DNA of 64,000 bases, taken from the NCBI GenBank assembly GCA_050015375.1, contig JBEKBN010000003.1, forward strand, positions 16,127 to 80,126, in the 5' to 3' direction. This stretch comes from Minisyncoccia bacterium (GTDB lineage: Bacteria > Patescibacteriota > Minisyncoccia > 2-02-FULL-40-12 > IGHO2-01-FULL-4-A). The notes below the pieces were generated by a model. It ran no database searches. It was not told where the DNA came from and was given only the letters and a program-made list of their open reading frames with translations. The translations under genes were made by a program, and so were the position numbers. Positions 1 to 57,189 of this stretch are shown here, piece after piece; positions within the stretch are counted from its first letter, which is position 1; every line of letters starts with the position of its first letter.

Positions 1-791
1 TTGGCTTATGGATACCCTTAATCCAAATTCCACTTCCACTCGGATATTCAAATGAGCCGTAATAAAACGGACTACTGAAAACATGATAAAGCGTATTTCG
101 GCTCATCTCTTTTCCGGCTGGCCGTTTCTTTGTCGGCGGCATTTTGAATTTCCACTCTTCGTTGGCAATCTCGACTATTTTCGGAACGGTGTAGTTCCCC
201 GTGAGCATCATATCAAACATCCTTCTGACCGTATCAAATCGCTCCTGGTCAACCAAGATGGTTTTGGTGCCCCGTTCTGCATATTTGTCGTTTGTATAGC
301 CAACTGGTGCTGGTGCTGGATATATGCCCGCTTGAACCTTAGCCCTTAACCCTCTTTTTACATCCTCGCCCTTATTATCATTTTCGAGTTTGGCCTGACT
401 GCAGAAAAGGTTGAGCAGGAATTTGTCATTTGGCGTGTTACGGAATGTTTGGCCTGGCGTCCGGACTTCGTGCAATTTACCAATGTCGAAAAGATAAACG
501 ATTTTGCCTGTATCAACCGAATTTCGAGAAATACGGCTTGGATTCCAAACTAGCAGGCCATTGGCTTCTCCCTGCTCAATCCGTTCGACCATCTTATTGA
601 ATATCGGCCTGCCTGGGTATTTGGCCGAGTGAGATTCTTCCAAAATTTCAATTATATTCAGTCCTTCTCTCTTTGCCAGTTCGCCAAGTTCCGATTTCTG
701 GGAATCAATAGACGCAACCTGTCGGTCTTCTTGCTCCGAAGATTTGCGAGGATATTCAAAGTATTTAATTTTACCTGGTTCTTGTTTCATA
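1..791 (-). pseudogene. large serine recombinase, partial at window edge, apparently disrupted by a 1-nt insertion near 719-721
   Basis: A minus-strand ATG at 791-789 gives MKQEPGKIKYFEYPRKSSEQEDRQ, which carries the catalytic Ser motif RKSSEQ. That frame hits TGA at 707-705. The remaining 230+ codons read VASIDSQKSELGELAKREGL...GSGIWIKGIHKP without stops in the adjacent frame and run off position 1. This part is collinear with the 496-aa recombinase at 18519-20009. Confidence 0.6.
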
Positions 792-939
792 AACTAAAAG
801 GGGGCCCTGGTTGCCCAATCCACTTGCTCCCAAAGGAGTAGCCATACTGGCAGGGCCCCCGTTTAGGGGCACTATGGCTAATAAAAAACCTTTGGGAAAA
901 CTTATGGATTTAGGCAACATAACCATTATACCATATTGG

Positions 940-5888: not shown

Positions 5889-5890
5889 AT

Positions 5891-7879: not shown

Positions 7880-8213
7880 ACACGGCGTATTTGAACACCC
7901 AACAAAAAGTCCTTTCTCGCTGGAAAAATATGATTCTCGCTGGGAGCGGGAATATATGGATGAGCTGGAGTTATATTCTGATGTCGCTAAATGGACTAAA
8001 AGCCACAACATCAGGATTCCTTATGTGGACGATGCGGGATATAGGAAATTCTTTGAACCGGATTTCTTGGTTGAAAAAATTGACGGCACAAAGGAAATTC
8101 ATGAGATTAAAGGTAGCCATTTAATGAACCGAGAAACCGAATTGAAAGTGAATGCGGCCAAGCTGTTTTGCGAGGCAAGAAATATGAAATTTCGCCTGAT
8201 TACAAAGCAATGA
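7866..8213 (+). CDS. PD-(D/E)xK nuclease domain ORF, probable detached or frameshifted C-terminal endonuclease part of Res
   Basis: 115-aa ORF overlapping the res end by 14 nt in another frame. It contains VDDAG...EPDFLVEKIDGTKEIHEIKG (PD...EIK). Confidence 0.5.
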   Translation: MQQSEHGVFEHPTKSPFSLEKYDSRWEREYMDELELYSDVAKWTKSHNIRIPYVDDAGYRKFFEPDFLVEKIDGTKEIHEIKGSHLMNRETELKVNAAKLFCEARNMKFRLITKQ

Positions 8214-8958: not shown

Positions 8959-9030
8959 GCCTTTGTAGCTCAACGGCCAGAGCACGCCTCTGAAAAGGGC
9001 GGGAAAGAGGTTCAACTCCTCTCAAAGGCA
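8959..9030 (+). tRNA. tRNA-Phe (GAA)
   Basis: Acceptor GCCTTTG/CAAAGGC, D-arm GCTC..GAGC, anticodon stem CGCCT/GGGCG with loop CTGAAAA, T-arm AGAGG-TTCAACT-CCTCT. 72 nt, CCA not encoded. Confidence 0.85.
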
Positions 9031-9033
9031 CAC

Positions 9034-9106
9034 GCCCTCGTAGCTCAATGGACAGAGCGGGACGCTTCTATCGTCAAGGTTGCAGGTTCAAGTCCTGCCG
9101 AGGGCA
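9034..9106 (+). tRNA. tRNA-Arg (UCU)
   Basis: Acceptor GCCCTCG/CGAGGGC, D-arm GCTC..GAGC, anticodon loop CTTCTAT with a G-A mismatch at 27-43, T-arm GCAGG-TTCAAGT-CCTGC. Confidence 0.75.
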
Positions 9107-9341
9107 CTCTAATAAAATAATAAAATTGGACTCATACCAAAATCATAGCGGTATGTTACAAGGAGAAGACATTAGCCAAAATGGACATCTGGGGATAACT
9201 ATTTTGTTGGTAATTATGTCTCGTTTAGTATAAAATATAGGATAGCAATACTTCGTGATTTTTGTTCTATTTTTATGTGGGACATTGACATTTTTTATTC
9301 TCTTGCTAAATTAAAGCACTATTAGTTTAATGTAAGATATT

Positions 9342-9671
9342 ATGCCCACTAAATCAGCATCCATACAAGCTATTGACTTAACGAGAGCCGTTTTTGAGTC
9401 TATACACGGTAATATCGGGTTACTTAAGTTTAATGTTGAAGAACTTACCCCCAAGAACGGAAAGAACGGAGAGGATTCAAAAAAATGGGAAATAGTTTGT
9501 AGTTTTTTAGAAACCCTTGGAAGTTCATCACAATCTCGCTATAGGGTATTTGTCGATTTGAATGATAGAACCGTAACTATCAAGAAACTAAGCAGTGGGC
9601 AGGGAGAGGCTGGATTAAATGAGCCGGAGAAAAAGTTTGTTGTTACAGAAGAAAAAGAGGAGAAAAAATAA
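9342..9671 (+). CDS. hypothetical protein (possible antitoxin-like partner)
   Basis: 109-aa ORF whose stop overlaps the start of the next gene (ATGA-type overlap at 9671). Confidence 0.35.
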   Translation: MPTKSASIQAIDLTRAVFESIHGNIGLLKFNVEELTPKNGKNGEDSKKWEIVCSFLETLGSSSQSRYRVFVDLNDRTVTIKKLSSGQGEAGLNEPEKKFVVTEEKEEKK

Positions 9672-10225
9672 TGTTATTAGAAATCGGAAATATTACCAAT
9701 TACGATAGAGATATAATCCCATTTACAAAAAATGGGATTGTTATTGATACAAGCATAATAAAAATTCTCATAGACGGTATCATAGCCACAAGGATAAGCA
9801 AAAAGAATCTAAACGAACTACCAGAATACAAAAATCTATTAGATTTCCTTGCCCTAATCAAGATGAACAATAAATGGGAAAAACTTTTTGTTACCCCACA
9901 TATTCTATCGGAGGTATGTAGACATTTTCGAGATGACTATTCGGACTATAAAAATTATAGAAACATTGTAGGAGAGGTTTTCCCCTTATTAAAAATCATG
10001 GAAGAACACATGGTAAGCAAGGAAAACATCATTGGCCATATTGATTATGATAATCCCGTGATTGAGATAGGCGACATATCTATATTTGCAGTCGCACAGG
10101 ATTTCATTAGTGAAAAAAAGAAAACTGCCATATTGGCCAAGGATAAAAGGATAAATGATAAGTATAAGGACGACTCCTATATTATGGTTATGGACTATCA
10201 AGCAATAATGCTAAGCCTCTTATAG
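9671..10225 (+). CDS. PIN-domain-like protein (putative VapC-like nuclease)
   Basis: N-terminal GIVIDTSIIKILIDG resembles the PIN hhhDTShh motif. Translationally coupled to the upstream small ORF. Confidence 0.35.
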   Translation: MLLEIGNITNYDRDIIPFTKNGIVIDTSIIKILIDGIIATRISKKNLNELPEYKNLLDFLALIKMNNKWEKLFVTPHILSEVCRHFRDDYSDYKNYRNIVGEVFPLLKIMEEHMVSKENIIGHIDYDNPVIEIGDISIFAVAQDFISEKKKTAILAKDKRINDKYKDDSYIMVMDYQAIMLSLL

Positions 10226-10572
10226 TCTTACCAGTTCTTGACGATTCCAAACGGCGAAGAGCCAGTTATGGCCATTAAAGCGGTTCTGACTTGGTTCAAC
10301 GCCCAGAGCTTTGGGGTTTTGTTCAAAACGACCGTGCCCTGTCACGGTTGGATGTTCAAAAAATACCCGAAAAAGGGTGTTTTTTGATTTTCAAGATCCA
10401 GCCGACTTAGTTCGAGTCCGTTTCCCATGAGGATCGAGATAAGTCCGCTGGTCTCCTGAAATTGATACCAAGTTGGTTACTTGTTTATAAGTTTTTAAAC
10501 AAACAAATACACCTATGATATAATAAAAACGGTCGTTTCTATTAAAACAATAACTAAGTAGTTATATTTATT

Positions 10573-11214
10573 ATGAATTATTTAGTATTTTTCTTCTTTT
10601 TGCATAATGTTTTAGCCACGTTCGTTTTAGGTATGAAGTTCGTAAAGCGCACTAGTGGTGTTTTTAAGAACTTCGGTATTGCTTTATTGTTAGATGCTGT
10701 TGCTTTCCTGGTGTGGTTATTCGGAATAATGCAACAAGGCAGTTTATTGATAAGTGTCACAATAGGTGCAGTGGTTTTTCTTGTTTCCCTGGTCTTTATG
10801 TTACGTGCCGCTTTCGAAGATACGCAAGCAAGCACTCGTCGGTTGGCAACGATAATAGGCGCCATTGCGGTAGTCGGTATATTCTATGTTGGACACATTC
10901 AGCCAGAAACAGCATATATTTCCCAAGAGGGCTTCTTTTTCTTTAACTTAGGGCCGTTGATGCAGATGCTATATATTTTTGGATTGGCGTTTACTGCTCT
11001 CCCGGCAATTGATTTATTGACTGATAAATTTAAATCATCTTATGCCGTACTCGTCCGCTATGGTTTTATCGCTGAAGTGGTCACCGGCATTATGCTTATT
11101 ACAAGCAAAAACACCCAGGTCCTCTATATTTCCGGGTGGATCTCTGGACTTATGTATCTTCTTCTCTGGACAACACTTCTCTTCAGTCGAAAAGCTTGGG
11201 CAAGCACTAGCTAA
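10573..11214 (+). CDS. multi-pass membrane protein
   Basis: 213-aa ORF with about 6 hydrophobic helices. Confidence 0.5.
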   Translation: MNYLVFFFFLHNVLATFVLGMKFVKRTSGVFKNFGIALLLDAVAFLVWLFGIMQQGSLLISVTIGAVVFLVSLVFMLRAAFEDTQASTRRLATIIGAIAVVGIFYVGHIQPETAYISQEGFFFFNLGPLMQMLYIFGLAFTALPAIDLLTDKFKSSYAVLVRYGFIAEVVTGIMLITSKNTQVLYISGWISGLMYLLLWTTLLFSRKAWASTS

Positions 11215-11302
11215 CCCCGTCATAATAAAGTAGGATTTATTTAGAACTTTAGTGTTAAAGTGTGTTTAGATTTAAAGAAAACTAGAGGGTAAAATAAGTC
11301 CA

Positions 11303-12412
11303 ATGGATAAACAAATTATAAATTATAGTAACTGTTGGGAGGATTCGGATGTATTGACTAAAGCGCTTAATATAAATTCTGGCGATGACATCTTGTCTAT
11401 TACTTCAGGGGGGTGCAATACTCTTGCACTTTTATTACAAAATCCAAGAAGCATTGTCGCGGTGGATTTTAATTCAGCGCAAAATTACCTTTTAGAATTA
11501 AAGGTTGCATCTTTTCGCATTCTTTCATACGACGAATGTCTTGCTTTTTTTGGAATAACGAAATCAGATGAGCGTTTACAAATATTTGACCGCTTGAAGA
11601 ATGGAATTACTCACGAAGCGCGACAGTGGTGGATGAAAAACACGGATTTGATAAATAAAGGGATTATTAATGTTGGGAAATTTGAACACTACCTCTCAAT
11701 ATTTAGAACAAAAATTATGCCGCTTATTCATTCAAAAAAGACTATCCGAAATTTATTTTTGTCCGATTCTCTAGCTAATCAAAAGAAATTTTATGATGAG
11801 ATATGGAATACATGGTTATGGAGGTTCGCATTTAGAATATTTTTTAGTCGCATGATAATGGATCGATTTGGCCGAAGAAAAGGTTCGTTTGCCCATACTC
11901 AAATTGATAATGTAGCAAACCATTATTTTGAACGAGCGAGGCATGGTCTTATAGAGATATCAATCCAGAATAATTATTTAATAAATTATATTTTTACCGG
12001 CACATTTAATAGAAACAATATGCCCCCGTATTTGCAGAGGAATAATTATAATACTTTGAAGACCCGTCTTGGTAGATTAAAAATTGTAACCGCGGGTATT
12101 AATGAATTTCTTCAAACATCCAAAGATAATGCTTTTTCAAAGTTCAATTTATCTGATATTTTTGAAACCATGAATCAAGATGAGGCAGATTCTGTATTTG
12201 AAGAAATCGTCAGAGTAGGCAGGAATAATAGTATTTTTGCATTTTGGAATAACTTGGTAGATCGCAAGCCCCCGGATACCTTAAAGGCCTCCGTATTTGA
12301 AAATCGTGAAATTTCTAATAAATTATTCAGCGTTGACAGAGGATTTATGTACAGTGATTTTTTAGTATATTTTATAAATAAAGACATTGAAAAACCTCAA
12401 TATGCCTTATAA
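11303..12412 (+). CDS. BtaA-like (DUF3419) S-adenosylmethionine-dependent 3-amino-3-carboxypropyl transferase family protein
   Basis: N-terminal YSNCWEDSDVL...GDDILSITSGGCNTLALLL...VAVDFNSAQNYLLELK matches the characteristic DUF3419/BtaA N-terminal block (CWED, SxxSGGCN, AVDxNxxQ). Confidence 0.55.
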   Translation: MDKQIINYSNCWEDSDVLTKALNINSGDDILSITSGGCNTLALLLQNPRSIVAVDFNSAQNYLLELKVASFRILSYDECLAFFGITKSDERLQIFDRLKNGITHEARQWWMKNTDLINKGIINVGKFEHYLSIFRTKIMPLIHSKKTIRNLFLSDSLANQKKFYDEIWNTWLWRFAFRIFFSRMIMDRFGRRKGSFAHTQIDNVANHYFERARHGLIEISIQNNYLINYIFTGTFNRNNMPPYLQRNNYNTLKTRLGRLKIVTAGINEFLQTSKDNAFSKFNLSDIFETMNQDEADSVFEEIVRVGRNNSIFAFWNNLVDRKPPDTLKASVFENREISNKLFSVDRGFMYSDFLVYFINKDIEKPQYAL

Positions 12413-13562
12413 AAATTTGTCCGATTTAACAAAGGGTATTTACCTTTTACCATGGAATAGAAGCGACAATCCTAACGGATGGGTTGAGCCCTCCACTTTT
12501 TGCCAGTTAAAATGCCCGGGATGTTATCGTGCTTTGAATAAGGACGGTGCCGTTCGTGTCCATGAGGATTTGTCAGACATGAAAAAACAAATTGATATGT
12601 TCGTAAAAACTCGTAATGTTCAGACAATATCAATTTCGGGCGGAGAACCGTTGCTATATCCCAAACTCAAAGAACTTTTATCGTACATAAAATTGAAAGG
12701 ATTAAAGACTAAAATCTTTACTAACGGAATTGCTTTAGACGAGAAGAATCTCCGGGAACTAAAAAATCACGGGGCTAATGAATTTATAATTCACATCGAC
12801 AAATCTCAAGGCAGACAAGGTTATCATAATGAAAACGAACTTAATAAATTAAGAAGATATTATTGTGATTTATTCAGAAAAATCGGCGGTGTTAATTTAA
12901 GCTTTATCATGCCGATTTCGAAAGAAACATTGTCAGATATAAAGCCGGTATTATCTTTTTGCAGAGAAAATGCTGATATTGTTGGCCTAATTGTTTTTAC
13001 ATTGTATAGCGATGTTGTCTGGAATGAAAGTGAAAAGAAGAACATTAACACAGACCTCGCCATTTTGGATATTGTAAATCAGATACAGGAGAATTTTAAA
13101 TTCAAACCATGTGCATATCTTGGAAGCACAGAAAACTTGGCTTATCCATCTTGGCTTTTTTCAATGTCGATTGGTTTAAAGGACAAAATACTTGGTTTTT
13201 TTGACGGCAGAGTATACAAAGCAATTCAAGAAAAACATCATTCTCAACACGGTACGTATCTATATACCAAAATTAATAAACCAATTCTTGCCCGGCAATT
13301 GATAAAACTTCTTGGTTTCAGCTCAATTCGCCGCATTCTGGCTAATTATTCAAAAAATGTAATTATAAATCCTAAAAAAAGAGAAAAGTTATATATGCAA
13401 ACCTTGCTAATACTTCGCGGCCCAAAATTTGCCTCTGACGGCAGTAGGAATCTCTGTGCCGGCTGTCCCGATGCAATGTACTACAATGGTAAACTGGTTC
13501 CTTCATGTATTTTAGAAGAAGTTAAGCAGGGTGAACATAAAAATACAGAATTTACACTATGA
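12387..13562 (+). CDS. radical SAM enzyme (possibly with a C-terminal SPASM/twitch-like Cys cluster)
   Basis: CQLKCPGC (CX3CX2C) and SISGGEPLLYP. C-terminal CAGCPDAMYYNGKLVPSC. Overlaps the upstream gene by 26 nt. Confidence 0.8.
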   Translation: MKNLNMPYKNLSDLTKGIYLLPWNRSDNPNGWVEPSTFCQLKCPGCYRALNKDGAVRVHEDLSDMKKQIDMFVKTRNVQTISISGGEPLLYPKLKELLSYIKLKGLKTKIFTNGIALDEKNLRELKNHGANEFIIHIDKSQGRQGYHNENELNKLRRYYCDLFRKIGGVNLSFIMPISKETLSDIKPVLSFCRENADIVGLIVFTLYSDVVWNESEKKNINTDLAILDIVNQIQENFKFKPCAYLGSTENLAYPSWLFSMSIGLKDKILGFFDGRVYKAIQEKHHSQHGTYLYTKINKPILARQLIKLLGFSSIRRILANYSKNVIINPKKREKLYMQTLLILRGPKFASDGSRNLCAGCPDAMYYNGKLVPSCILEEVKQGEHKNTEFTL

Positions 13563-14443
13563 TTCTGGAAAACTATTCCTTAGTTAAGCGAATAATAAAA
13601 TATAGTAATGAGCGTTTTCCAATAATACTATGTTTAACCACAGCGTCGGTAGTTTTTAGTTCATTTGTTATTTCAACAGGAAAACTAGTACCGGAAATAA
13701 ATACAAATTTTGTCGTAGGATTTGTAACTGGATTGCTATATTTATTTCACATTAGGTTATTCGATGAATTAAAGGATTTTGAGCATGACTCTAAATACTA
13801 TCCGAAAAGACCTGTAATAAGAGGGCTGCTTTCATTAAATGAAATAAAGAACATCGCAATTGTTGCAATATTATTTGAATTTATCGCAAATCTGTTTGTT
13901 CCGACTAAAGTTTTCCTTTTTTTTCTAATCCTATTTGCCTATTCCGCTGTATGCAGATATGAGTTTTTTATCAGTGATTTGTTGAGACGTAACTTTTTCG
14001 TCTACAATATACTTCATTATTTCCAGATGTCATTGGTGGTCGTTTATCTTTATATTCTCGCCGGGGTGGATCTGCGTCATCTGGATAAATTGTTAATTCT
14101 ACATTTTATTTTTACTAATCTGACTTTTACTCTCATAGAATGGGCGCGAAAAATGAGGATTATTTCAGAAGAAAATGAGAGCAAGGACACATATTCAGCC
14201 CGCTTGGGTATAAGAGGAGTTTCTTTAGTATTTCTTATAATGGCGGCATCGACTTTTATTTGCTTCGGTTTTATCAAGGCAATGGTTGGATCATTCGGAC
14301 ATTCTATGTTTCTTTCTATATTGGGATTCATTCTCGTAATAACAGCAACACTTCTTTATGCTATAAAAAGGACAAAACTTTCAACAAATGCGCTTCAAAT
14401 ATCCTCTATTATATTTTTTGTGCTACTTCATTTTTCGGTTTAA
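13559..14443 (+). CDS. UbiA-family prenyltransferase-like membrane protein
   Basis: FDELKDFEHD (Asp-rich motif) and YPKRPVIRG (UbiA R-P-x-x-x-G motif). About 8 TM helices. 4-nt overlap with the upstream gene. Confidence 0.5.
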   Translation: MILENYSLVKRIIKYSNERFPIILCLTTASVVFSSFVISTGKLVPEINTNFVVGFVTGLLYLFHIRLFDELKDFEHDSKYYPKRPVIRGLLSLNEIKNIAIVAILFEFIANLFVPTKVFLFFLILFAYSAVCRYEFFISDLLRRNFFVYNILHYFQMSLVVVYLYILAGVDLRHLDKLLILHFIFTNLTFTLIEWARKMRIISEENESKDTYSARLGIRGVSLVFLIMAASTFICFGFIKAMVGSFGHSMFLSILGFILVITATLLYAIKRTKLSTNALQISSIIFFVLLHFSV

Positions 14444-14452
14444 ATAATAATC

Positions 14453-16888
14453 ATGCTATACACGCTTTCCAATATTATCGATAAGGACCTGGTTAAATTG
14501 GGTGGCAAAGGACTTAATCTGTACCTTCTTACAAAAGAGGGGCTACCGATTCCAGAATGGTTCATAATCCCGGCGGATGCAGATCTAAAAGAAATAGAAC
14601 CTCAAATCATGGCTCACTACAACCGATTAGCAAAAGATGGAGGTGTCGCGGTTAGATCATCTGCCAATGTGGAAGATGCGAAAGATATGTCTTTCGCAGG
14701 CCAATTCAGTAGTTACCTTAACATAAATACCTTTGAAGATTTGCACGAAGCGATTCAAAAAGTAAGAGAATCGGTAAATTCAAAAGTTGTTTCGAAATAT
14801 TTAAAAAATAATAATCTTCAGAAGGAGTCGATTAAAATGTCAGTTATTGTTCAAAAAATGATTTGTAGCGATATTTCCGGCGTTATGTTTACTGCCAATC
14901 CTATAACTGCCAATACCGACGAACTTATAATAAACTCTGCAACTGGTGTAGATTCTGTTGTGAAAGGAATAAAAGCAAATGTTCATATTTTTAATAAACG
15001 CAAGGGTTTAATTTTGGATACTGGATCTAAAATTCAAAACGGACTTAATAATGGACTTCTTGATAAACTGTTTAAAATTGGTATAAAAATTGAAAATATA
15101 TTTAACTCCCCGCAAGATATTGAATGGGCGATCAAAGACAAAGAAATATTTATTCTACAAAGCAGACCCATAACAAAGCTGAACAAATTTGAGGAACAGC
15201 TTTGGGATAATTCTAATATTTCCGAAAGTTATAGCGGGGTTACGATGCCCTTAACGATATCTTTTGCCAGGCGAATTTATTCGACCGTATACCGGGAAGT
15301 TGCCTTAACTTCAGGTGTTTCTAGACAGGTTATTGAGGATAACAAGCAACTTTTTGATAATATGCTTGGTTTTTTTAGAGGCAGATTTTTTTATAACATG
15401 GATAATTGGTATCGTTTGCTTTTATTTTTCCCAGCATTCGGTTTTACCAAAGGTTCCATGGAACAGATGATGAGCGTAAAAGAATTTCATAACTTTGATA
15501 AAACGATAAACAATTCATGGTTTTTTAATGTTAGATATATTCTTAGGGCAACTTACAGGTTTTTTAATTTTAACCATGAAATTAAGTCTTTTAAAGAAAT
15601 ATTCCATCAAACTTACGACCCTTTAAAAACCCTTGACCTATCGACCCTAACGGAGTTGGAATTATTGGCTTTATATAATAAAGTCGAGAGCAAAATTCTT
15701 CGACCATGGCACACGGCAATAGATAATGATTTTCTGGCAATGATCTTTTATGGACTTCTCCGGAAATTAACCGATCGTTGGGGACTTAATAAAATAAACC
15801 CGTCAATTTATAACGATCTTCTTTCGGGTATGAATAATGTCGCAAGTGCGGAACAAACCGAACAATTGTTAAAAATTACATCTCTCATCCGGGATAATAA
15901 AAAAGTACTAGAACTCTTTAATCAGGCAAACAGTGGGGTTTTGTATAATAAATATAAGCAAAAAGAATTTAATCCAGAGCTTCTAGGAGCAATCGATATT
16001 TATTTAGACAGATTTGGCGACCGTTTTGCTAATGAACTTAAATTGGAAGAACCAAATATAAAAGAGTCACCGGAAAAACTATTTAGTTTGATTAGGGTGT
16101 ATTTATCTATATTGCCCGAGAAGTTTGATGAGAAAATCAAAGGAAGAAATTCAATAAAATTACAGGCTATCGAATATCTTAAATCCAATTTAAACCCAAT
16201 AAAAAAGTTATTAATATTTTATGTTCTAAAACAATCTGAACGGTTCTTGAAAAATCGAGAACAGATGAGGTTAATGAGAGCAAAAATTTTCGGGTTTATC
16301 AGAAATATTTTCAAGGAAATTGGAACTAAATTTGAGATGAATAATATCATTGATAAATCAGATGATATATTTTTTCTGGAAATTGACGAAATTGCTAGAT
16401 TTATTGAAGGTTCTTCGTGCTGCTCAAACCTTAAAGATTTAATAAAGATTAGAGAAAAAGAATTTGATATTTATAAGCGCGAAAACATGGATGACAGATT
16501 TTATACTCACGGTGTCCCGTATTTAGATATTCCTTTATCAAAACCTGATTATGAGGTGGGGCAACAACCTAGAGTACTAAAGGGATTGCCAAGCTCTCCC
16601 GGAAAAGCTTGGGGTAAGGTTCAACTCATGGAAGAATTCAGCTATGAAATTGACGGGGGCGCAAGAATATTGATAACAAAGCATACAGATCCCGGCTGGA
16701 CGCCTATATTCAGTCGTTTCAGTGGAATTATCGTCGAAAATGGCGGGCAGCTTTCGCATGCCTCCATCGTATCACGAGAACTCGGCATTCCTTGCATTGT
16801 CGGAATTAAAGACGTGACGAGGATTATTAAAAATGGCGCCATGATAACCATGGATGGATCAAGAGGAGAATTGATAATTGGAAAATAA
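14453..16888 (+). CDS. PEP-utilizing enzyme family phosphotransferase (PEP synthase / rifampin-phosphotransferase-like three-domain architecture)
   Basis: N-terminal ATP-grasp KLGGKGLNLYLLTKEGLPIPEWFII. C-terminal phosphohistidine mobile domain GGQLSHASIVSRELGIPCIVG. 811 aa. Confidence 0.75.
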   Translation: MLYTLSNIIDKDLVKLGGKGLNLYLLTKEGLPIPEWFIIPADADLKEIEPQIMAHYNRLAKDGGVAVRSSANVEDAKDMSFAGQFSSYLNINTFEDLHEAIQKVRESVNSKVVSKYLKNNNLQKESIKMSVIVQKMICSDISGVMFTANPITANTDELIINSATGVDSVVKGIKANVHIFNKRKGLILDTGSKIQNGLNNGLLDKLFKIGIKIENIFNSPQDIEWAIKDKEIFILQSRPITKLNKFEEQLWDNSNISESYSGVTMPLTISFARRIYSTVYREVALTSGVSRQVIEDNKQLFDNMLGFFRGRFFYNMDNWYRLLLFFPAFGFTKGSMEQMMSVKEFHNFDKTINNSWFFNVRYILRATYRFFNFNHEIKSFKEIFHQTYDPLKTLDLSTLTELELLALYNKVESKILRPWHTAIDNDFLAMIFYGLLRKLTDRWGLNKINPSIYNDLLSGMNNVASAEQTEQLLKITSLIRDNKKVLELFNQANSGVLYNKYKQKEFNPELLGAIDIYLDRFGDRFANELKLEEPNIKESPEKLFSLIRVYLSILPEKFDEKIKGRNSIKLQAIEYLKSNLNPIKKLLIFYVLKQSERFLKNREQMRLMRAKIFGFIRNIFKEIGTKFEMNNIIDKSDDIFFLEIDEIARFIEGSSCCSNLKDLIKIREKEFDIYKRENMDDRFYTHGVPYLDIPLSKPDYEVGQQPRVLKGLPSSPGKAWGKVQLMEEFSYEIDGGARILITKHTDPGWTPIFSRFSGIIVENGGQLSHASIVSRELGIPCIVGIKDVTRIIKNGAMITMDGSRGELIIGK

Positions 16889-16890
16889 AC

Positions 16891-17904
16891 ATGAAAATTC
16901 AGAAATATAATTTTGATGTGAAACAGGTTAACTCCTTTTTGAAATTAATTGATATATTATACTTGAAAAACCAGAATACAAATCTATACAAAAATTTCAT
17001 TTTGGATTCTCTTAAACCTAAAAATCATTTTTATAAATTTGCTGATATCCAGAATTTCTTTGCTTTGGAACACGATTCTCCCCAGGGTCATATCTCCGCA
17101 ATGATTGATAACAGACTTCCTGGAGTCGGGCTCGTTGGTTTTTTTGAATCCTCAAACGCCGAAATTGCTGATAAACTGATAGATTTATCTATTGAATATT
17201 TTCGGGAAAAAGGTGTCACAACTATAAGAGGACCAATTGATTTATCAATTTGGCACAGATATAGATTTGCAAATCCGGCAGATACAGGAAATATATTTTT
17301 ATTCGAACCCTTTAATAAACCCAAATACCCGGAATATTTCTCAAATTATGGATTTAAAATTGCCGAAAAATATTTTTCAGGCTTACGCACTGATTTTAAT
17401 GACATTATCAATTATACGAAAGACGGATACGATAAAGCTTGTCAGAAAGGATTTAAAATAAGAACCATTAAACTCAATGAGTTTAATGAAGAATTAAAAA
17501 TAATTCACAGGCTATCCCTAGAAATATTTAAGGAAAGTTGGTCATTTGTTCCAATATCATTTGAAGAATTTAGTTCAATTTATAAAGGCATTGAGAAAAA
17601 AATTAACCCGCGTTTTTGCGAGTTTATTTGTGACGGAAAAAAGGAAATAGGCTTTTGTTTTAGTATTCCGGATTTTACGAGCCGTGAAAAAAAGTTGATT
17701 ATTAAAACGATAGGCGTACTGCCTGAATACCAGGGTCAAAATTTAGGCTTGGCCTTGATTTACGATCAGCATGTTAAAGCCAAAGCGGACAATTTTGAAA
17801 CAATAGTGTATGCACTTATGAAATATGGCAACAGGGCCTCACAGATTAATCCTTACGGAGCAAAAATATTTCGGGATTACGAGATATACGAATTAGAAAT
17901 ATGA
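16891..17904 (+). CDS. GNAT-fold acetyltransferase-like protein
   Basis: C-terminal VLPEYQGQNLGLALI (Q/RxxGxG/A acetyl-CoA motif). Starts 3 nt after the upstream stop. Confidence 0.4.
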   Translation: MKIQKYNFDVKQVNSFLKLIDILYLKNQNTNLYKNFILDSLKPKNHFYKFADIQNFFALEHDSPQGHISAMIDNRLPGVGLVGFFESSNAEIADKLIDLSIEYFREKGVTTIRGPIDLSIWHRYRFANPADTGNIFLFEPFNKPKYPEYFSNYGFKIAEKYFSGLRTDFNDIINYTKDGYDKACQKGFKIRTIKLNEFNEELKIIHRLSLEIFKESWSFVPISFEEFSSIYKGIEKKINPRFCEFICDGKKEIGFCFSIPDFTSREKKLIIKTIGVLPEYQGQNLGLALIYDQHVKAKADNFETIVYALMKYGNRASQINPYGAKIFRDYEIYELEI

Positions 17905-18530
17905 ATACAATCTTAACATCTTTGGTTTTTCTAGCATCTTTCGTTTTAGTCGAAGCAATTCAGCGAAAAACCAAATTAGAAAACGAATATTCCAGAAAAA
18001 TAGTTCATATAACCTCTGCGATTATCGTTTTTTTAATGCCTTATTATTTGAATCGCCTCGACATTATCGGGTTATCATTATTTTTCATCATTTTTTTATT
18101 AGTAACCAAGAAGTTAGGTTTTTTACAAAGCATTCACAGAGTCGGGCGGCACAGTCTGGGAGAAATATATTTTCCGCTTGGAGTTGGTTTAACAGCTTTT
18201 TTCTTTCTGCCGAATAACATTATTTCATTTCAGTTCGGCTTTTTAATTCTGGGGTTTTCAGATGCCATCGGGGGTCTAGTAGGATACTCACTCGGTAATC
18301 GTAAAACAATATTGCTTGGAAACAAAAGCATTGAGGGAACTGCCACCTTTTTCCTGACAACATTTCTGATATTTATATTTTTCATTTACTCAAAAACGAG
18401 CACAAATCTAATCTCTGCCTTTCCTGTTGTCTTGTTGATCACCCTTACAGAACTTATATTTACTGGCGGTTTAGATAATCTCTTCTTGCCAATTTTATCA
18501 GCAGTCCTTATTAAAGTGCTATTGAGTTGA
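17901..18530 (+). CDS. CTP_transf_1 (CdsA/CarS/dolichol-phytol kinase) superfamily membrane protein
   Basis: GYSLGNRKTILLGNKSIEGTATFF resembles the KxSxEGTxA motif of polyprenol/phytol kinases. About 6 TM helices. 4-nt overlap with the upstream gene. Confidence 0.4.
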   Translation: MNTILTSLVFLASFVLVEAIQRKTKLENEYSRKIVHITSAIIVFLMPYYLNRLDIIGLSLFFIIFLLVTKKLGFLQSIHRVGRHSLGEIYFPLGVGLTAFFFLPNNIISFQFGFLILGFSDAIGGLVGYSLGNRKTILLGNKSIEGTATFFLTTFLIFIFFIYSKTSTNLISAFPVVLLITLTELIFTGGLDNLFLPILSAVLIKVLLS

Positions 18531-20009
18531 TCGGGTAACTATGAACTTTTTCAAATATATCTTCCTGTCCTTTATAAATATCTCATCTTTCAGGCAAGAC
18601 AGCAGCTCTCTCTTCTCCTCTCGCGATCCTTCCTTGAGGATATACTTAGCATAGTTTTTTATATTCACTTCATTGATATTCGCTTCATTCTGATACTTCT
18701 GTCCAAGGACATTACCTATAAATTGCCGGTGTCGTGCCAGTTCTCTTTCAAGCTTCTCTTTCGCTCCGATCTTATCTATCGAAATTTCATCAATTAATTC
18801 CAGGAGCTGGCCGACCAGCTCCTCTTCACGTATGTATTTCTGTCCGCAATATTTGTCGTGGTATTTAGTACAGTGATAATAAATATATTTGGTTATACCT
18901 CCGTTAGCCAGCTTTTTATACTTCTCCGTTGCCGTGATGCCTGATCCGCAAGCTCCGCATTTGAATATTCTTACAAAATTAAATTCTTTTGTTCCCGGTC
19001 TTAACTTCGGAGTGGCTACTATTGCTGTCTGAACCTTGTTGAACAGATCCTGATCTATAATTGGCTCATGGGAACCGTTATAGAATATTCCGCTTCCTTC
19101 AGGATATTCGAACTTACCATAATAATAGTGGCGCTTAAGAGTGCAGTAAATCATACTGAGGGTTATTCTCTTTCCGGTTCGTGTCCTAAAGCTTGTTTCA
19201 TTATTAAGCCAGGCAAGTAAATCCCGTCCGCTGTATCCCTGATATGCGACCTTTTCGAACATCTGTTTTATAAACGGCGCTCTTATCGGGTCCAAAATAA
19301 CTATTTTCTGTCCCTTTTTTGCTGTTGTATCGTGTATATAGCCCAATGGAGGAACTCCCGGCCGCCAGCCCATTTCGCATTTGGTTCGCAATCCGCGTTT
19401 CACATTCTCGCCTTTGTGGTCGTTCTCCAGTTTCGCTTGTGAACACAAGATCATAAGAAGGAACTTCTCGTTCGGTGAATTAGTGAATCGCTGACCATGC
19501 GTCCGAATTTCTTTCAGGACCCCAGCATCCATAAGGTCAACAACTTTACCCAGATCTCCGGCATTTCTTGATATACGGCTCGGATCCCAGGCAATGATGC
19601 CATCGAACTTTCCGTTTCCGATATCTTTTAATAATTCATTGAAGACCGGCCGTAAGCCAGAATCCTTTGCTGAATGGCTTTCCTGTTTAATCTCAGAGAC
19701 GGTCAAACCATCCCGATTTGCCATCTGGATCATCTCCTTTATCTGAGACTCAATAGAGAGCGCCTGACGCTCGTCCTGCTCGCTTGATTTGCGGGCATAG
19801 AGGCAATACCTCAAAGACCCCTTCAAAGTCTTGCGAAAGATGGTTAGAGACCTGCTTGGGGAGCTTACAAAACAAAACAACCCAGTTGGGTTGTTTTGTT
19901 TTGTAAGATTCCGTCGGGGAGAAAGCCGACTTCTCGGCTTTCGTTCGGACTCGAAGGGCGCAAACGATATTTTTTCAGCAGAAAAAATCGTGCGCCCGTG
20001 GTCAGACAA
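18519..20009 (-). CDS. large serine recombinase (true start probably near 19821, not 20009)
   Basis: Catalytic LRYCLYARKSSEQDERQ, resolvase core, and a large C-terminal recombinase domain with a Zn-ribbon-like CGACGSG...CTKYHDKYC. The ORF-track start is a TTG at 20009, and the ORF reads through a 44-bp palindrome. A TTG giving MKGSLRYCLY lies just downstream of the palindrome. Confidence 0.85.
   Translation of the reverse strand: MSDHGRTIFSAEKISFAPFESERKPRSRLSPRRNLTKQNNPTGLFCFVSSPSRSLTIFRKTLKGSLRYCLYARKSSEQDERQALSIESQIKEMIQMANRDGLTVSEIKQESHSAKDSGLRPVFNELLKDIGNGKFDGIIAWDPSRISRNAGDLGKVVDLMDAGVLKEIRTHGQRFTNSPNEKFLLMILCSQAKLENDHKGENVKRGLRTKCEMGWRPGVPPLGYIHDTTAKKGQKIVILDPIRAPFIKQMFEKVAYQGYSGRDLLAWLNNETSFRTRTGKRITLSMIYCTLKRHYYYGKFEYPEGSGIFYNGSHEPIIDQDLFNKVQTAIVATPKLRPGTKEFNFVRIFKCGACGSGITATEKYKKLANGGITKYIYYHCTKYHDKYCGQKYIREEELVGQLLELIDEISIDKIGAKEKLERELARHRQFIGNVLGQKYQNEANINEVNIKNYAKYILKEGSREEKRELLSCLKDEIFIKDRKIYLKKFIVTRSTQ
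19864..19907. repeat. 44-bp element: perfect 21-bp inverted repeats flanking a central non-palindromic GT (candidate serine-recombinase crossover/att or res site)
   Basis: cttacaaaacaaaacaaccca GT tgggttgttttgttttgtaag. Located immediately 5' of the recombinase catalytic domain coding region. Confidence 0.6.
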
Positions 20010-20035
20010 AACCAGCTGACCGAGCGGGTTTTAGC

Positions 20036-20060
20036 CGCGACCGAGTCCTACCCGTGGAGC
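20036..20060. repeat. 25-bp direct repeat, copy 1 (gcgaccgagtcctacccgtggagc)
   Basis: Recurs at 21085-21109 with one mismatch (T/C). Confidence 0.7.
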
Positions 20061-20169: not shown

Positions 20170-20958
20170 TTATTTCTTCAAAAAATTATATTCCAGAAAG
20201 ACCTGAATAATCGGCAGCTGCTGATTAGAAGGATATTGTAAACCAACAATGTTTGCATCGGCATAGTTTCGCCTAAAAGCTAAACCACCACTAAAGCCCA
20301 GCATTCCCCGACCTTCTTTTGTGTCGCAATCGCTTACGCAGATCTTGAAACCACCAAGCAAAGTCATCGGCACACGATAGTAGGCGACTTGTTTTTTTAA
20401 TAAGGTCTCATCGCCACCATACTCGCTATAACCTTGCCTAAGAGAAACATTCATCCAGAATGGAAATGATGTGTAGGCCTCACTTGTAAGCCAGAACCGG
20501 CCCCCTAAACGAACCGATGTTTCACCAAATGCACCGAGACGTACGGGCGAGCTTTTTAATTCGAAATAAGTAACCGTGCTCCCGATACAATAACACCCAT
20601 ATTGAACTTCGTTTGAATGGTCGCCGTTAAAAATTATCATCCCTCCGGCAGCTAGTTCAAGGCGATTTCCAAAATTCAGAGTCGGTCCAAACTCTCCGGG
20701 TATCATAATCATTCCCGAATGCAACTTAATCCGATCAATCGCATATATGCTTAAATACCCCGATGGGTATTGGACAGTTCTAAGAACTTCGGGAAAGTTA
20801 CTATATGAAGTGATCCTCCAAGGGTTAGGCGCGTATCCACCTTTAAACTTAAAGCCCAGGATAACGCCATGCGGTTTATCATTTTGTTGGGCATTTTGCG
20901 CCCAAGCAACTGGCGCCAATAGACAAAAAAGTAAAACAGCCACGGCACGTTTTAGCAT
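20170..20958 (-). CDS. secreted protein with N-terminal signal peptide (beta-rich, OMP-like composition)
   Basis: MLKRAVAVLLFCLLAPVAWAQNAQQ signal peptide. Gly/aromatic-rich alternating pattern. Sits between the two 25-bp direct repeats. Confidence 0.5.
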   Translation of the reverse strand: MLKRAVAVLLFCLLAPVAWAQNAQQNDKPHGVILGFKFKGGYAPNPWRITSYSNFPEVLRTVQYPSGYLSIYAIDRIKLHSGMIMIPGEFGPTLNFGNRLELAAGGMIIFNGDHSNEVQYGCYCIGSTVTYFELKSSPVRLGAFGETSVRLGGRFWLTSEAYTSFPFWMNVSLRQGYSEYGGDETLLKKQVAYYRVPMTLLGGFKICVSDCDTKEGRGMLGFSGGLAFRRNYADANIVGLQYPSNQQLPIIQVFLEYNFLKK

Positions 20959-21084
20959 TTTCCTACCTCTCTTCCTTTGTTAAAGATAAGCCAATACTAC
21001 CCTTACTTTTTCGGGTAGTCAAGGCGTTCATTACCCACACCTTAAAACTTGAAAATCCATGGAAATAAGTGCAAGGTGAGAGTC

Positions 21085-21109
21085 GCGACCGAGTCCTACC
21101 CGCGGAGCC
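21085..21109. repeat. 25-bp direct repeat, copy 2
   Basis: cgcgaccgagtcctacccgcggagc. Confidence 0.7.
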
Positions 21110-56685: not shown

Positions 56686-57189
56686 GTTACAGGGTCATCA
56701 TAAATTATTAAAAACACCTAAATTTTGATGTAATGAACAAAAAAATTCGTTAATTTATGATAAATGTTTATCAAAAAAGTATTATCAATGTTTATTAATG
56801 TATACATATGATAGTATAACTTTCTTTTATTTTAAAGGCGAGGGGATAACTTTTTGATTTCCGGGAACATCCTAACATTATTTGAAGTAAAAAGATTTAC
56901 CAGGTATTAGAATCCCATTATAGAAGAAGAAAGTTATCAACAAATTTTAAAAACGATGCTCTATAATTAGTACATGATTTTATTATCGGATATCGCATCG
57001 GATTACGCATCCGATATATGAGAATAAATCAATGAATCCCAAGTTATTTATAAACATCCGATAACGCACAGCGACCCCGATAATATCGGGGTCGCCTGGA
57101 ACGCGCGTTTATGACTTTAGTGAGTCATAAACTATAACAATTTTACTAAAAATAAGTACCCGTGTAAACACTAAAAAAGAAGACGTCTG

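Follow-up and report, generated by a model that had tools for sequence, protein, structure and literature searches.

Gene content and setting of the locus

The window analysed here is a 64,000-nt stretch of DNA from a CPR genome of Minisyncoccia, a tiny bacterium of symbiotic type, in keeping with the patescibacterial host proposed by an earlier sequence-only reading. Seven intact ORFs, all in one direction, were found at positions 10573–18530 of the plus strand, exactly where that reading had placed seven genes (Table 1).

Table 1. Coordinates of the operon genes and neighbouring features in the window
Feature	Position	Strand	Description
Recombinase A	1..793 (C-terminal part; off left window edge)	-	Large serine recombinase, 538 aa on full contig
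tRNA-Phe + tRNA-Arg	8959..9107	+	Found with ARAGORN and Rfam; landmark within the recombinase-bounded stretch, not part of the pathway
Candidate promoter	10496..10524	+	Sigma-70-like, weakly supported; ~50 nt ahead of gene 1
Gene 1	10573..11214	+	213 aa, six-helix membrane protein (TM213)
Gene 2	11303..12412	+	369 aa, DUF3419/BtaA-family SAM-dependent (3-amino-3-carboxypropyl) transferase-like
Gene 3	12402..13562 (386 aa) or from 12387 (391 aa)	+	Radical SAM enzyme
Gene 4	13559..14443	+	294 aa, UbiA-superfamily intramembrane (prenyl)transferase-like, divergent subfamily
Gene 5	14453..16888	+	811 aa, Rph/PigC-type ATP-dependent phosphotransferase-like
Gene 6	16891..17904	+	337 aa, tandem-repeat GNAT N-acyl/acetyltransferase-like
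Gene 7	17901..18530	+	209 aa, membrane protein, CdsA/polyprenol-kinase (CTP-dependent) superfamily-like
Recombinase B	18519..20009	-	Large serine recombinase; Resolvase + Recombinase + Zn_ribbon_recom; CcrB/XisF-like

The genes had been described as tightly coupled, which holds for five of the six junctions, although the accompanying figures of 4–26-nt overlaps or 3-nt gaps left out an 88-nt gap between genes 1 and 2 and a 9-nt gap between genes 4 and 5. Genes 3 and 4 overlap by 4 nt, as do genes 6 and 7, and 2 nt separate genes 5 and 6. The overlap between genes 2 and 3 is 11 nt with the ATG start of gene 3 used in public gene calls (12402) and 26 nt with the alternative TTG start (12387). 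The candidate promoter upstream of gene 1 (TAAACA-17-TATAAT with an extended TG) matches 10 of 12 positions, in a scan that as a whole was not enriched over shuffled sequences (44 found, 40.5 expected).

Both flanking serine recombinases of the sequence-only reading are real, and each carries the Resolvase, Recombinase and Zn_ribbon domains. Recombinase B, which is 401 aa long in the public gene call (18519–19724), converges on gene 7 with a 12-nt overlap. Recombinase A is its paralogue (phmmer E = 3.3e-73); its full gene lies partly beyond the window, and the core genes GGDEF, RpoD and DnaG come after it. The GC content is 0.344 in the cluster and 0.451 in the right flank. Homologous serine recombinases adjoin the closest related clusters, at two other loci (L066 and L101). 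Composition and recurring recombinase adjacency favour the proposed mobility of this DNA. Against it, a search for att-type repeats bounding the recombinase-flanked stretch found none, and a slightly higher AT content in the cluster than around it is also seen at six of the seven further CPR loci with which it was compared.

Families of the seven gene products

Profile searches placed five of the seven products above the thresholds of the families expected for them, but genes 1 and 7 had no Pfam match. Gene 2 matches DUF3419 (PF11899) over nearly its whole length (E = 1.3e-73, 248.9 bits; residues 6–356 on profile positions 10–383 of 385). It shares two motifs with canonical BtaA, Y..WED at the N-terminus and SGGxN for SAM binding, and its residues W12, E13, D14, S35, G36, G37, N39, D55 and K67 are kept in a BtaA-type protein of R. 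leguminosarum. Of the 34 positions invariant in the gene 2 subfamily, 19 are shared with this btaB-linked protein. Its identity to a btaA product encoded beside a btaB-type methyltransferase gene is 23%. In a neighbour-joining tree containing one canonical sequence, the cluster-linked DUF3419 copies all fell into one group, separated from btaB-linked BtaA by a long branch. By these sequence comparisons, gene 2 is a DUF3419 member of a clade distinct from canonical BtaA, and the label BtaA-like holds at family level only, for a clade without BtaB.

Ordinary synthesis of the betaine lipid DGTS, with gene 2 acting as BtaA on diacylglycerol beside unrelated neighbours, would agree with the strong DUF3419 match and with the JGI label of the gene 2 protein, S-adenosylmethionine-diacylglycerol 3-amino-3-carboxypropyl transferase. 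However, a class I SAM methyltransferase directly follows btaA in the canonical comparison locus, whereas no BtaB-type methyltransferase occurs in the operon or in any related locus, and CMAS is the only methyltransferase among the families recurring near DUF3419 there. Together with the low identity, the separate clade and the conservation of the other operon genes as partners rather than chance neighbours, this led us to reject gene 2 as BtaA proper and makes DGTS synthesis highly improbable. The BtaA/BtaB pathway of Rhodobacter, rhizobia and algae nevertheless offers a presumed parallel, in which a DUF3419-family SAM enzyme with the same motifs attaches the 3-amino-3-carboxypropyl group at a lipid hydroxyl, giving a phosphorus-free head group, and a second enzyme then acts on the nitrogen. 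In the operon, a tandem GNAT stands in the position equivalent to BtaB, and the DUF3419 gene is firmly tied to partners foreign to the DGTS pathway, of the UbiA, Rph-like and CdsA-like types.

The UbiA assignment of gene 4 was upheld by a full-length Pfam match (43.0 bits, GA 34.2; residues 35–284 on profile positions 8–244 of 250). Across 19 members of its family, R66, D69, E70, D73 and D77 of the first motif (RxxDExxDxxxD...RP) are invariant or nearly so. The region of the second Asp-rich motif, DxxxD, reads ExxRK...(D)TY, and only E194, R197, K198, T211 and Y212 are conserved there in the alignment. This UbiA subfamily appears to lack a canonical second Asp-rich motif, and its donor may not be a prenyl diphosphate. 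The best solved relative of the family profile is the DGGGP synthase of M. jannaschii (6m31, E = 6e-9), with chlorophyll synthase and DPPR synthase (8j8j, E = 0.002) ranking next.

Gene 5 has PPDK_N (E = 2e-48), Rph_4th and PEP-utilizers (E = 1e-24) domains, corresponding to an ATP-grasp domain, a substrate domain and a C-terminal His swivel with the carrier-His motif GGQLSHASIVSR, as expected of the PEP-synthase/rifampin-phosphotransferase-like enzyme first proposed. Its best solved relatives, 5hv2/5fbs, are deposited as "phosphoenolpyruvate synthase" and match gene 5 in the C-terminal position of the His domain; we take them to be the Listeria rifampin phosphotransferase. Gene 5 shares this architecture with Rph and with the prodigiosin ligases PigC and RedH, but it lies within a lipid operon and scores far below the equivalog cut-offs: 623.6 bits against PRK06241.2-2 (cut-off 883), 233 bits against Rph (cut-off 999) and 283 bits against PigC (cut-off 1300), with 272 bits against RedH. 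As every NCBIfam equivalog was below its cut-off, identification as a rifampin phosphotransferase, PEP synthase or PigC equivalog was rejected.

Gene 6 proved to be a GNAT, as predicted (Acetyltransf_1, 23.7 bits; cut-off 20.7). Its chain contains two GNAT folds, one of which has the acyl-CoA motif, and the tandem fold resembles acetylases of small-molecule primary amines such as MshD and GlcN N-acetyltransferase. Unlike MshD and other tandem-repeat GNATs, to which its identity is 10–17%, the gene 6 family is fused elsewhere to lipid head-group or acyl-activating enzymes.

Gene 7 encodes a small polytopic membrane protein that appears to have a CdsA-like fold and the motifs D...G, KSxEG and DNLxxP. 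It gave no match to CTP_transf_1 (PF01148) even at E ≤ 10, so that its placement in the CdsA/polyprenol-kinase superfamily depends on fold and transitive homology: two of its 17 homologues match PF01148 (best E = 5.3e-5), and relatives carry dolichol or phytol kinase labels. In its apparent motifs and fold, and in its adjacency to a UbiA-type gene, gene 7 resembles the phytol/dolichol kinases and CDP-diacylglycerol synthase of the CTP_transf_1 family, but it differs from them in having no direct Pfam match. In the phytol salvage route of tocopherol synthesis (VTE5-VTE6-VTE2), a prenol kinase feeds a UbiA enzyme. The operon differs from it in having no VTE6-type second kinase, a role that the Rph-like enzyme would have to serve.

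The radical SAM nature of gene 3 was confirmed by the Pfam match (PF04055, 64.1 bits) and by CQLKCPGC as the CX3CX2C cluster motif, and a C-terminal CxxC...C motif is also present. Among solved proteins, gene 3 comes closest to the tetraether lipid synthase GDGT-MAS (7tol), matched over the core only (E = 1e-8). For Tes/GDGT-MAS, a BLAST E < 1e-50 and a length >400 aa have been used (PMC8941075). Gene 3 was rejected as a Tes/GDGT-MAS in view of the weak 7tol match, its length of 386–391 aa and a score of 52.1 bits against the NCBIfam Tes model NF045702 (cut-off 450). Gene 1 matched nothing in Pfam, NCBIfam or PADLOC and is unrelated to the C-terminal half of long CdsA-like proteins; the invariant residues of its family are mostly Gly, Ala and aromatics, and it is probably non-catalytic.

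Related clusters in other genomes

A scan of a genome collection found DUF3419 genes of the gene 2 type in at least 551 species, and 80 species loci were kept for neighbourhood analysis. With UbiA, Rph-like, GNAT and CdsA-like genes counted as partners within ~10 kb of DUF3419, all four were present at 45 of the 80 loci and three or more at 61; where 6 kb or more was available on each side, all four were present at 33 of 46 loci. The partner genes share the strand of DUF3419 in 231 of 255 cases. Dozens of unrelated genomes have these genes side by side, so that the arrangement is far beyond chance, and DUF3419, UbiA, an Rph-like enzyme, a tandem GNAT and a CdsA-like protein constitute a core cluster across many bacterial phyla, with Brevibacillus laterosporus (B9) and Roseinatronobacter (sp. 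S2) as two cultured carriers. The combination is no peculiarity of the CPR. Relatives of gene 3 at ≥45% identity always lie inside the cluster, and at 12 CPR-type loci a gene of the gene 1 type immediately precedes (reductase)-DUF3419. The widespread core is extended in particular lineages by the radical SAM enzyme, a CPR-lineage accessory, and by the first membrane protein. The cluster has no pathway name in RefSeq annotation or in the searchable literature, which bears out the view that it is not a textbook pathway.

The variable partners beside the cluster all belong to lipid metabolism: PlsC acyltransferase, CMAS, phosphatidylserine (PS) decarboxylase, MMPL, an acyl-AMP ligase and thioester reductases; and an NAD_binding_4 reductase occurs in CPR versions. 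PLD-like, HMG-CoA-reductase-like and AMP-binding genes lie near related clusters, and P450s recur beside some versions. Two fusions were observed in related loci: GNAT::acyl-AMP ligase and CDP-OH_P_transf::GNAT. The second of these joins a CDP-alcohol phosphatidyltransferase to the GNAT in a single CPR variant, where it takes the place of DUF3419 together with a CarS-like gene. This variant locus also encodes UbiA, a split Rph-like enzyme and a CdsA-like protein. The lipid theme of the sequence-only reading is strongly bolstered by these neighbours, namely PlsC, CMAS, PS decarboxylase, MMPL, PLD-like, CarS and CDP-alcohol phosphatidyltransferase.

The same neighbourhoods bear on whether the product is instead a soluble or secreted small molecule. 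In such a secondary metabolite route, UbiA would prenylate, SAM would supply an acp/homoserine side chain, the GNAT would N-acetylate, possibly for self-protection, the PigC/RedH/Rph-like enzyme would activate, and the radical SAM enzyme would tailor. Gene 5 scores well against the PigC, RedH and rifamycin phosphotransferase models, tandem GNATs include clavulanate ORF14, some cluster versions have P450s and acyl-AMP ligases, and the cluster lies on an accessory island. However, three or four of the seven operon products are integral membrane proteins, the genes that recur next to the cluster encode membrane-lipid enzymes (PlsC, CMAS, PS decarboxylase, CarS, CDP-alcohol phosphatidyltransferase, MMPL) and not NRPS, PKS or terpene cyclases, and across many phyla the cluster is widely spread in what looks like a vertical pattern. 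We consider a small-molecule product unlikely.

Modification of a polyprenyl-phosphate carrier lipid or a cell-envelope polymer is quite unlikely. Gene 7 would then be an undecaprenol/polyprenol kinase, and the UbiA enzyme, acting like decaprenyl-phosphate phosphoribosyltransferase, would transfer a diphosphate-activated polar group to polyprenyl phosphate; decoration of the group so attached would fall to the enzymes of genes 2 and 6. In favour of this, the atypical second UbiA motif permits a non-prenyl donor, DPPR synthase is among the solved relatives, the kinase labels on gene 7 relatives would fit, and the cell-wall genes VanY, MliC and GT4s lie nearby in the window. Yet DGGGP synthase is a far better UbiA match than DPPR synthase (E = 6e-9 vs 2e-3), the conserved neighbours PlsC, CMAS and PS decarboxylase work on acyl glycerolipids, and across the related loci the cluster has no conserved glycosyltransferase, flippase or sugar-nucleotide enzyme.

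A putative route to a membrane lipid

Taken as a whole, the seven genes are best explained as a single operon whose products make or remodel a membrane lipid, a reading in which our confidence is about even. Most likely it would synthesise or remodel membrane lipids by way of an isoprenoid/alkyl step and an N-acyl(homo)serine head group. The novel head-group or ether/isoprenoid route envisaged earlier is partly backed by the enzyme families and the lipid-enzyme neighbours.

The catalytic motifs of the cluster enzymes are intact, and the order of steps given here is inferred from the fusions and from analogy. In building the core, gene 7 may use CTP to phosphorylate a lipid alcohol or lipid phosphate or to activate it with CMP. 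Gene 5 could draw on ATP to phosphorylate a hydrophobic substrate, converting for instance a prenyl phosphate to a prenyl diphosphate, and gene 4 would then move the diphosphate-activated isoprenoid or allylic chain onto a glycerol-lipid acceptor. For the head group, gene 2 is predicted to place the 3-amino-3-carboxypropyl group of SAM on the free hydroxyl of the resulting lipid, yielding a phosphorus-free homoserine ether. Gene 6 may N-acetylate or N-acylate the new alpha-amine, in place of the N-methylation by BtaB in DGTS synthesis. Gene 3 may modify the hydrocarbon tail, and gene 1 could be a membrane partner that has no catalytic role. The head-group module seems exchangeable, because the CPR locus described above has CarS and CDP-alcohol phosphatidyltransferase::GNAT instead of DUF3419.

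The route recalls the archaeal ether-lipid pathway, in that the closest solved relatives of genes 4, 3 and 7 are DGGGP synthase, GDGT-MAS and CdsA, the last a bacterial counterpart of its enzymes. The CarS-like and CDP-alcohol phosphatidyltransferase genes of the sister CPR locus likewise parallel archaeal CarS and archaetidylserine synthase. Enzymes for the first ether bond (GGGPS/PcrB), for glycerol-phosphate supply and for isoprenoid chain synthesis were found neither in the cluster nor in the rest of the window. The pathway may be partial or need scavenged host lipids, because the ligase and reductase frequent in other cluster versions are absent from this operon. The operon is a Patescibacteria-type version of a widespread and hitherto uncharacterised family of bacterial gene clusters.

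The operon and its enzyme families

Seven open reading frames (ORFs) on the plus strand form the operon proposed in the sequence-only reading, and encode, in order, a membrane protein, a DUF3419 protein, a radical SAM enzyme, a UbiA-type protein, an Rph-like phosphotransferase, a tandem GNAT and a CdsA-like protein. An 88-nt gap separates genes 1 and 2, and genes 2 and 3 overlap by 26 nt with a TTG start or by 11 nt with the ATG start at 12402 of the public gene calls. The 3/4 and 6/7 junctions are 4-nt overlaps, the 4/5 and 5/6 junctions are gaps of 9 and 2 nt, and gene 7 shares 12 nt with the 3' end of the convergent recombinase gene. About 50 nt upstream of gene 1 is a sequence that resembles a promoter (TAAACA-17-TATAAT); the promoter scan as a whole gave no excess above shuffled sequence.

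Most of the families named in the sequence-only reading were recovered by profile searches. Gene 2 matches DUF3419 strongly (E 1.3e-73), which upholds its BtaA-like assignment at the family level, and the match of gene 4 to UbiA exceeds the gathering score and spans the full length. A single UbiA sequence gave nothing useful against solved structures; the family profile had M. jannaschii DGGGP synthase, an archaeal UbiA-type ether-lipid enzyme, as its top solved relative (E 6e-9, first motif region), with chlorophyll synthase and DPPR synthase next. In this subfamily, ExxRK...TY appears to stand in place of the second Asp-rich motif. The phosphotransferase-like nature of gene 5 is borne out by its PPDK_N, Rph_4th and PEP-utilizers domains, and its score lies under all NCBIfam equivalog cut-offs, those of PEP synthase, Rph and PigC/RedH among them. 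Its top solved relatives, 5hv2 and 5fbs, are deposited as 'phosphoenolpyruvate synthase' and are presumably Listeria rifampin phosphotransferase; the His domain is C-terminal in both these entries and gene 5. Gene 3 is a radical SAM enzyme with a CQLKCPGC motif and a C-terminal CxxC...C, and among solved structures it comes closest to the tetraether synthase GDGT-MAS (E 1e-8).

The CdsA-superfamily assignment of gene 7 stood only in part: gene 7 itself has no Pfam match, but PF01148 is matched by 2 of 17 homologues, JGI labels homologues as dolichol kinase or phytol kinase, and the alignment contains the motifs RKxxH, SDAxxxxxG, KSxEG and GLDNLFLP. Because of these matches, labels and shared motifs, gene 7 is placed, at the fold level, as a putative member of the CdsA/polyprenol-kinase superfamily. 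The DUF3419 and gene 7 profiles matched no PDB sequence. Gene 1 encodes a membrane protein with six helices and without conserved charged residues, for which family searches found no family. The idea that gene 1 is the split-off C-terminal half of the CdsA-like proteins in other phyla, which are 450 aa long, was rejected because the hhalign probability was 0.2%.

A conserved core and its variants

A scan in which each species was represented by one genome found relatives of the gene 2 DUF3419 protein in at least 551 species. The best 80 of these came from Acidobacteriota, Planctomycetota, Verrucomicrobiota, Gemmatimonadota, Bacteroidota, Geobacteraceae, Nitrospiraceae, Melainabacteria, WOR-3, Zixibacteria and Patescibacteria (CPR). 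When the ORFs of these 80 loci were searched with the seven window proteins, an Rph-like partner was present in 71, UbiA in 64, GNAT in 62 and CdsA-like in 58; all four occurred together in 45 of the 80 and in 33 of the 46 loci having at least 6 kb on each side, and 231 of 255 partner genes lay on the same strand as DUF3419. Given these counts and the strand agreement, genes 2, 4, 5, 6 and 7 therefore constitute a conserved core. Gene 1 is confined to CPR-type versions (12 loci), and gene 3, among the best 80 loci, to a CPR subset. In other Patescibacteria, the same gene set is surrounded by housekeeping genes, the ATP synthase operon for example. The earlier reading of the locus was largely right, except that the cluster recurs in other Patescibacteria and in many phyla and is not a unique CPR invention.

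Relatives of gene 3 with at least 45% identity were always inside the cluster in the metagenome scan, and those with 30-40% identity usually adjoined the tandem-GNAT family with the rest of the cluster absent. In many metagenome loci (among L142-L171), such relatives lie directly 5' of the tandem-GNAT gene, with no UbiA, Rph-like or DUF3419 gene; in one of these, L148, two B12-binding radical SAM enzymes join the pair. The radical SAM-GNAT pair is a second conserved module, apart from the operon.

Recurring neighbours of the core include an AMP-binding ligase (44 of 82 loci), an HMG-CoA-reductase-like protein (HMGR-like; 21 loci), a NAD_binding_4 thioester reductase in CPR versions (11), a PlsC-type acyltransferase (9), a cyclopropane-fatty-acyl-phospholipid synthase (CMAS; 7), phosphatidylserine decarboxylase (6), MMPL and P450 (4 each) and a PLD-like protein; each is a lipid enzyme or a lipid transporter. 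The GNAT is also found fused to a FAAL-like acyl-AMP ligase (P0265) and to a CDP-alcohol phosphatidyltransferase (P0157). The locus of the latter, the CPR variant L091, lacks DUF3419 and runs radical SAM/SPASM, 343-aa unknown, 155-aa unknown, UbiA, Rph_4th + His domain (564 aa), the phosphatidyltransferase-GNAT fusion and CdsA-like, ending with CarS-like, which is encoded on the other strand, and a PPDK_N gene of its own (244 aa), such that the Rph-like enzyme is divided between two genes. L091 is not syntenic with the window; its flanks match other window regions. Since this locus has a CarS-like gene and the fusion without DUF3419, we read the variants as two interchangeable head-group modules feeding one GNAT family: CarS plus the CDP-alcohol transferase, for an amino alcohol or amino acid in phospho linkage, and DUF3419, for a 3-amino-3-carboxypropyl (acp; homoserine) ether. 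The hydrophobic core would come from a common module of the UbiA, Rph-like and CdsA-like proteins. An Acetothermia MAG locus (L009) holds only a DUF3419 of the cluster clade, a NAD_binding_4 reductase and an MMPL transporter, plus an unrelated 213-aa membrane protein, a gene content that suggests a minimal module of reductase, DUF3419 and exporter.

Two cultured carriers were identified. In Brevibacillus laterosporus B9 (NZ_CP011076.1, near 462-474 kb) the genes run HMGR-like, UbiA, Rph-like, DUF3419, long CdsA-like, GNAT, AMP ligase and P450. Roseinatronobacter sp. S2 carries the cluster on a plasmid (NZ_CP121116.1, near 128.2-136.2 kb), with generic RefSeq gene names only.

A probable island between two serine recombinases

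Recombinase A, a large serine recombinase cut by the left window edge, spans 538 aa on the full contig, where GGDEF, RpoD and DnaG come after it. Between it and recombinase B lie, in order, two family-less proteins, a Type III restriction-modification (R-M) system with a divided Res, tRNA-Phe and tRNA-Arg, a two-gene pair and the operon (see table). The two family-less proteins have no Pfam or PADLOC match and no mutual similarity, and may be island cargo. The two-gene pair, likewise without a family match, is arranged like a toxin-antitoxin system.

Coordinates of features in the window and in compared loci
Feature	Position	Strand	Description
Two 400-aa proteins	940-2142; 2523-3752	-	Between recombinase A and R-M system
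Type III R-M system	4047-8213
Mod	4047-5888		Full-length PADLOC MTase_III match
Res, helicase	5891-7879		14-nt overlap with nuclease
Res, TnsA-like nuclease	7866-8213
Small ORF pair (109 and 184 aa)	9342-10225		One-base overlap (TAATG); between tRNA pair and operon
Operon, genes 1-7	10573-18530	+
Recombinase B	18519-20009	-	Publicly called as 18519-19724
Palindrome	19859-19912		26-nt arms, 2-nt spacer; just 5' of recombinase gene as publicly called
28-nt direct repeat	20033-20060; 21081-21108		AG(C/T)CGCGACCGAGTCCTACCCG(T/C)GGAGC
Lone 262-aa gene	20170-20958	-	No family match; beside recombinase B
Giant gene	~57130 to 64000	+	Exits right end of window; 4596 aa on contig
CPR variant locus	L091:4717-13491
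Radical SAM-GNAT locus	L148:6250-11292
Acetothermia MAG locus	L009:8200-13999

The G+C content of the operon stretch (0.344) is the window minimum, against 0.394 on its left and 0.451 on its right, and no other CPR locus in the comparison shows so large a drop. Six of these seven other loci also have a cluster richer in AT than its flanks, by 1-7 points. Next to the CPR-type cluster in two compared loci (L066 and L101) are serine recombinases, homologous or similar, and the L101 DUF3419 is among the closest relatives of gene 2 (50% identity). The identical gene 2 protein occurs on contigs of four samples, whose neighbourhoods are alike up to the contig ends, and NCBI places it in a Minisyncoccia (Patescibacteria) MAG. 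The proposed location on mobile DNA agrees with the recombinases and the low GC, although no att-like direct repeats bound the island; the search for them turned up nothing but a local palindrome and, round a neighbouring gene, a 28-nt repeat. The operon was likely acquired on a recombinase-borne island and is a local, CPR-flavoured copy of a widespread lipid-type cluster.

The palindrome, near-perfect and unique in the window, may bind the recombinase, or act as an att site or operator. The 28-nt repeat, with two copies in the window against none expected by chance, flanks the lone gene and could mark the edge of a cassette or have a regulatory role. The remainder of the window is an ordinary CPR genome, with ribosomal proteins, EF-Ts, TGT, NiFe hydrogenase, GT4s and a giant gene with Peptidase_S74 and faint LVIVD/EPTP matches that probably encodes a large CPR surface protein.

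Possible chemistry and significance

Canonical synthesis of the betaine lipid DGTS was considered for the cluster. In Rhizobium leguminosarum, btaA is directly followed 3' by a btaB-type methyltransferase, whereas the window operon has no methyltransferase, and of the families that recur near DUF3419 in related loci, CMAS alone is one. Gene 2 and canonical BtaA have SAM-binding and N-terminal motifs in common, but share 23% identity (R. leguminosarum protein as reference), and the cluster-linked DUF3419 copies form a single group on a long branch apart from that BtaA. The low identity, separate group and missing BtaB-type methyltransferase therefore contradict plain DGTS synthesis, and the cluster appears at most BtaA-like in chemistry. 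Gene 3 was likewise rejected as an archaeal tetraether lipid synthase (Tes), with 52 bits against a cut-off of 450, and also failed the published Tes criteria (PMC8941075). The nearness of the UbiA protein to DGGGP synthase and of gene 3 to GDGT-MAS is treated as a pair of leads to the archaeal ether-lipid pathway, not as memberships. As stated in the sequence-only reading, this is not a textbook pathway: literature and the RefSeq names on the Roseinatronobacter plasmid give none, no published description of the cluster was found in the full-text literature, and the UbiA-linked and HMGR-linked neighbourhoods of the Lipocone paper are other than the present cluster (PMC12419801).

The cluster appears to be a variant of known lipid head-group chemistry. 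From the family memberships, conservation and context, which are established, we infer a series of steps. A lipid alcohol, probably scavenged in CPR and elsewhere possibly supplied by the ligase and thioester reductase, would be phosphorylated by the CTP-dependent gene 7 protein, and the Rph-like enzyme would add a further phosphate. The UbiA-type enzyme would transfer the activated chain to a glycerolipid acceptor, DUF3419 would place the acp group of SAM on a free hydroxyl, the tandem GNAT would N-acylate the amine, and the radical SAM enzyme would alter the tail. As rival explanations, the cluster may make a prenylated small molecule, or may modify a carrier lipid or the cell envelope.

It is improbable, in our estimate, that the core cluster gives bacteria a new way of making ether-linked isoprenoid (archaeal-like) or allylic-alkyl glycerolipids. 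Such a route would convert an alcohol, either salvaged or made by the ligase and thioester reductase of other versions, to the diphosphate through the CTP-dependent kinase and the Rph-type phosphotransferase, and the DGGGP-synthase-like UbiA would join the chain to glycerol as an ether. The cap would be N-acyl-homoserine (DUF3419) or N-acyl-phosphoserine (CarS and CDP-alcohol transferase), and in CPR versions the GDGT-MAS-like radical SAM enzyme would work on the tails. If true, genome-reduced Patescibacteria would gain a mobile module for a distinctive membrane lipid of their own.

The core cluster occurs in hundreds of species of Acidobacteriota, Planctomycetota, Verrucomicrobiota, Gemmatimonadota, Bacteroidota, Bacillota and others, and no product has so far been assigned to it. 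With at least two cultured carriers, the question of a lipid product is directly testable. A confirmed lipid product would mean N-acylated homoserine ether lipids as a new head-group chemistry, possibly a new mode of isoprenoid or alkyl chain attachment, and gene markers for orphan environmental lipids. Patescibacteria have been described as without lipid biosynthesis (PMC9948471); the operon indicates that some of them hold a complete-looking module of lipid-type enzymes, likely horizontally mobile, and bears on how Patescibacteria build and tune their membranes.
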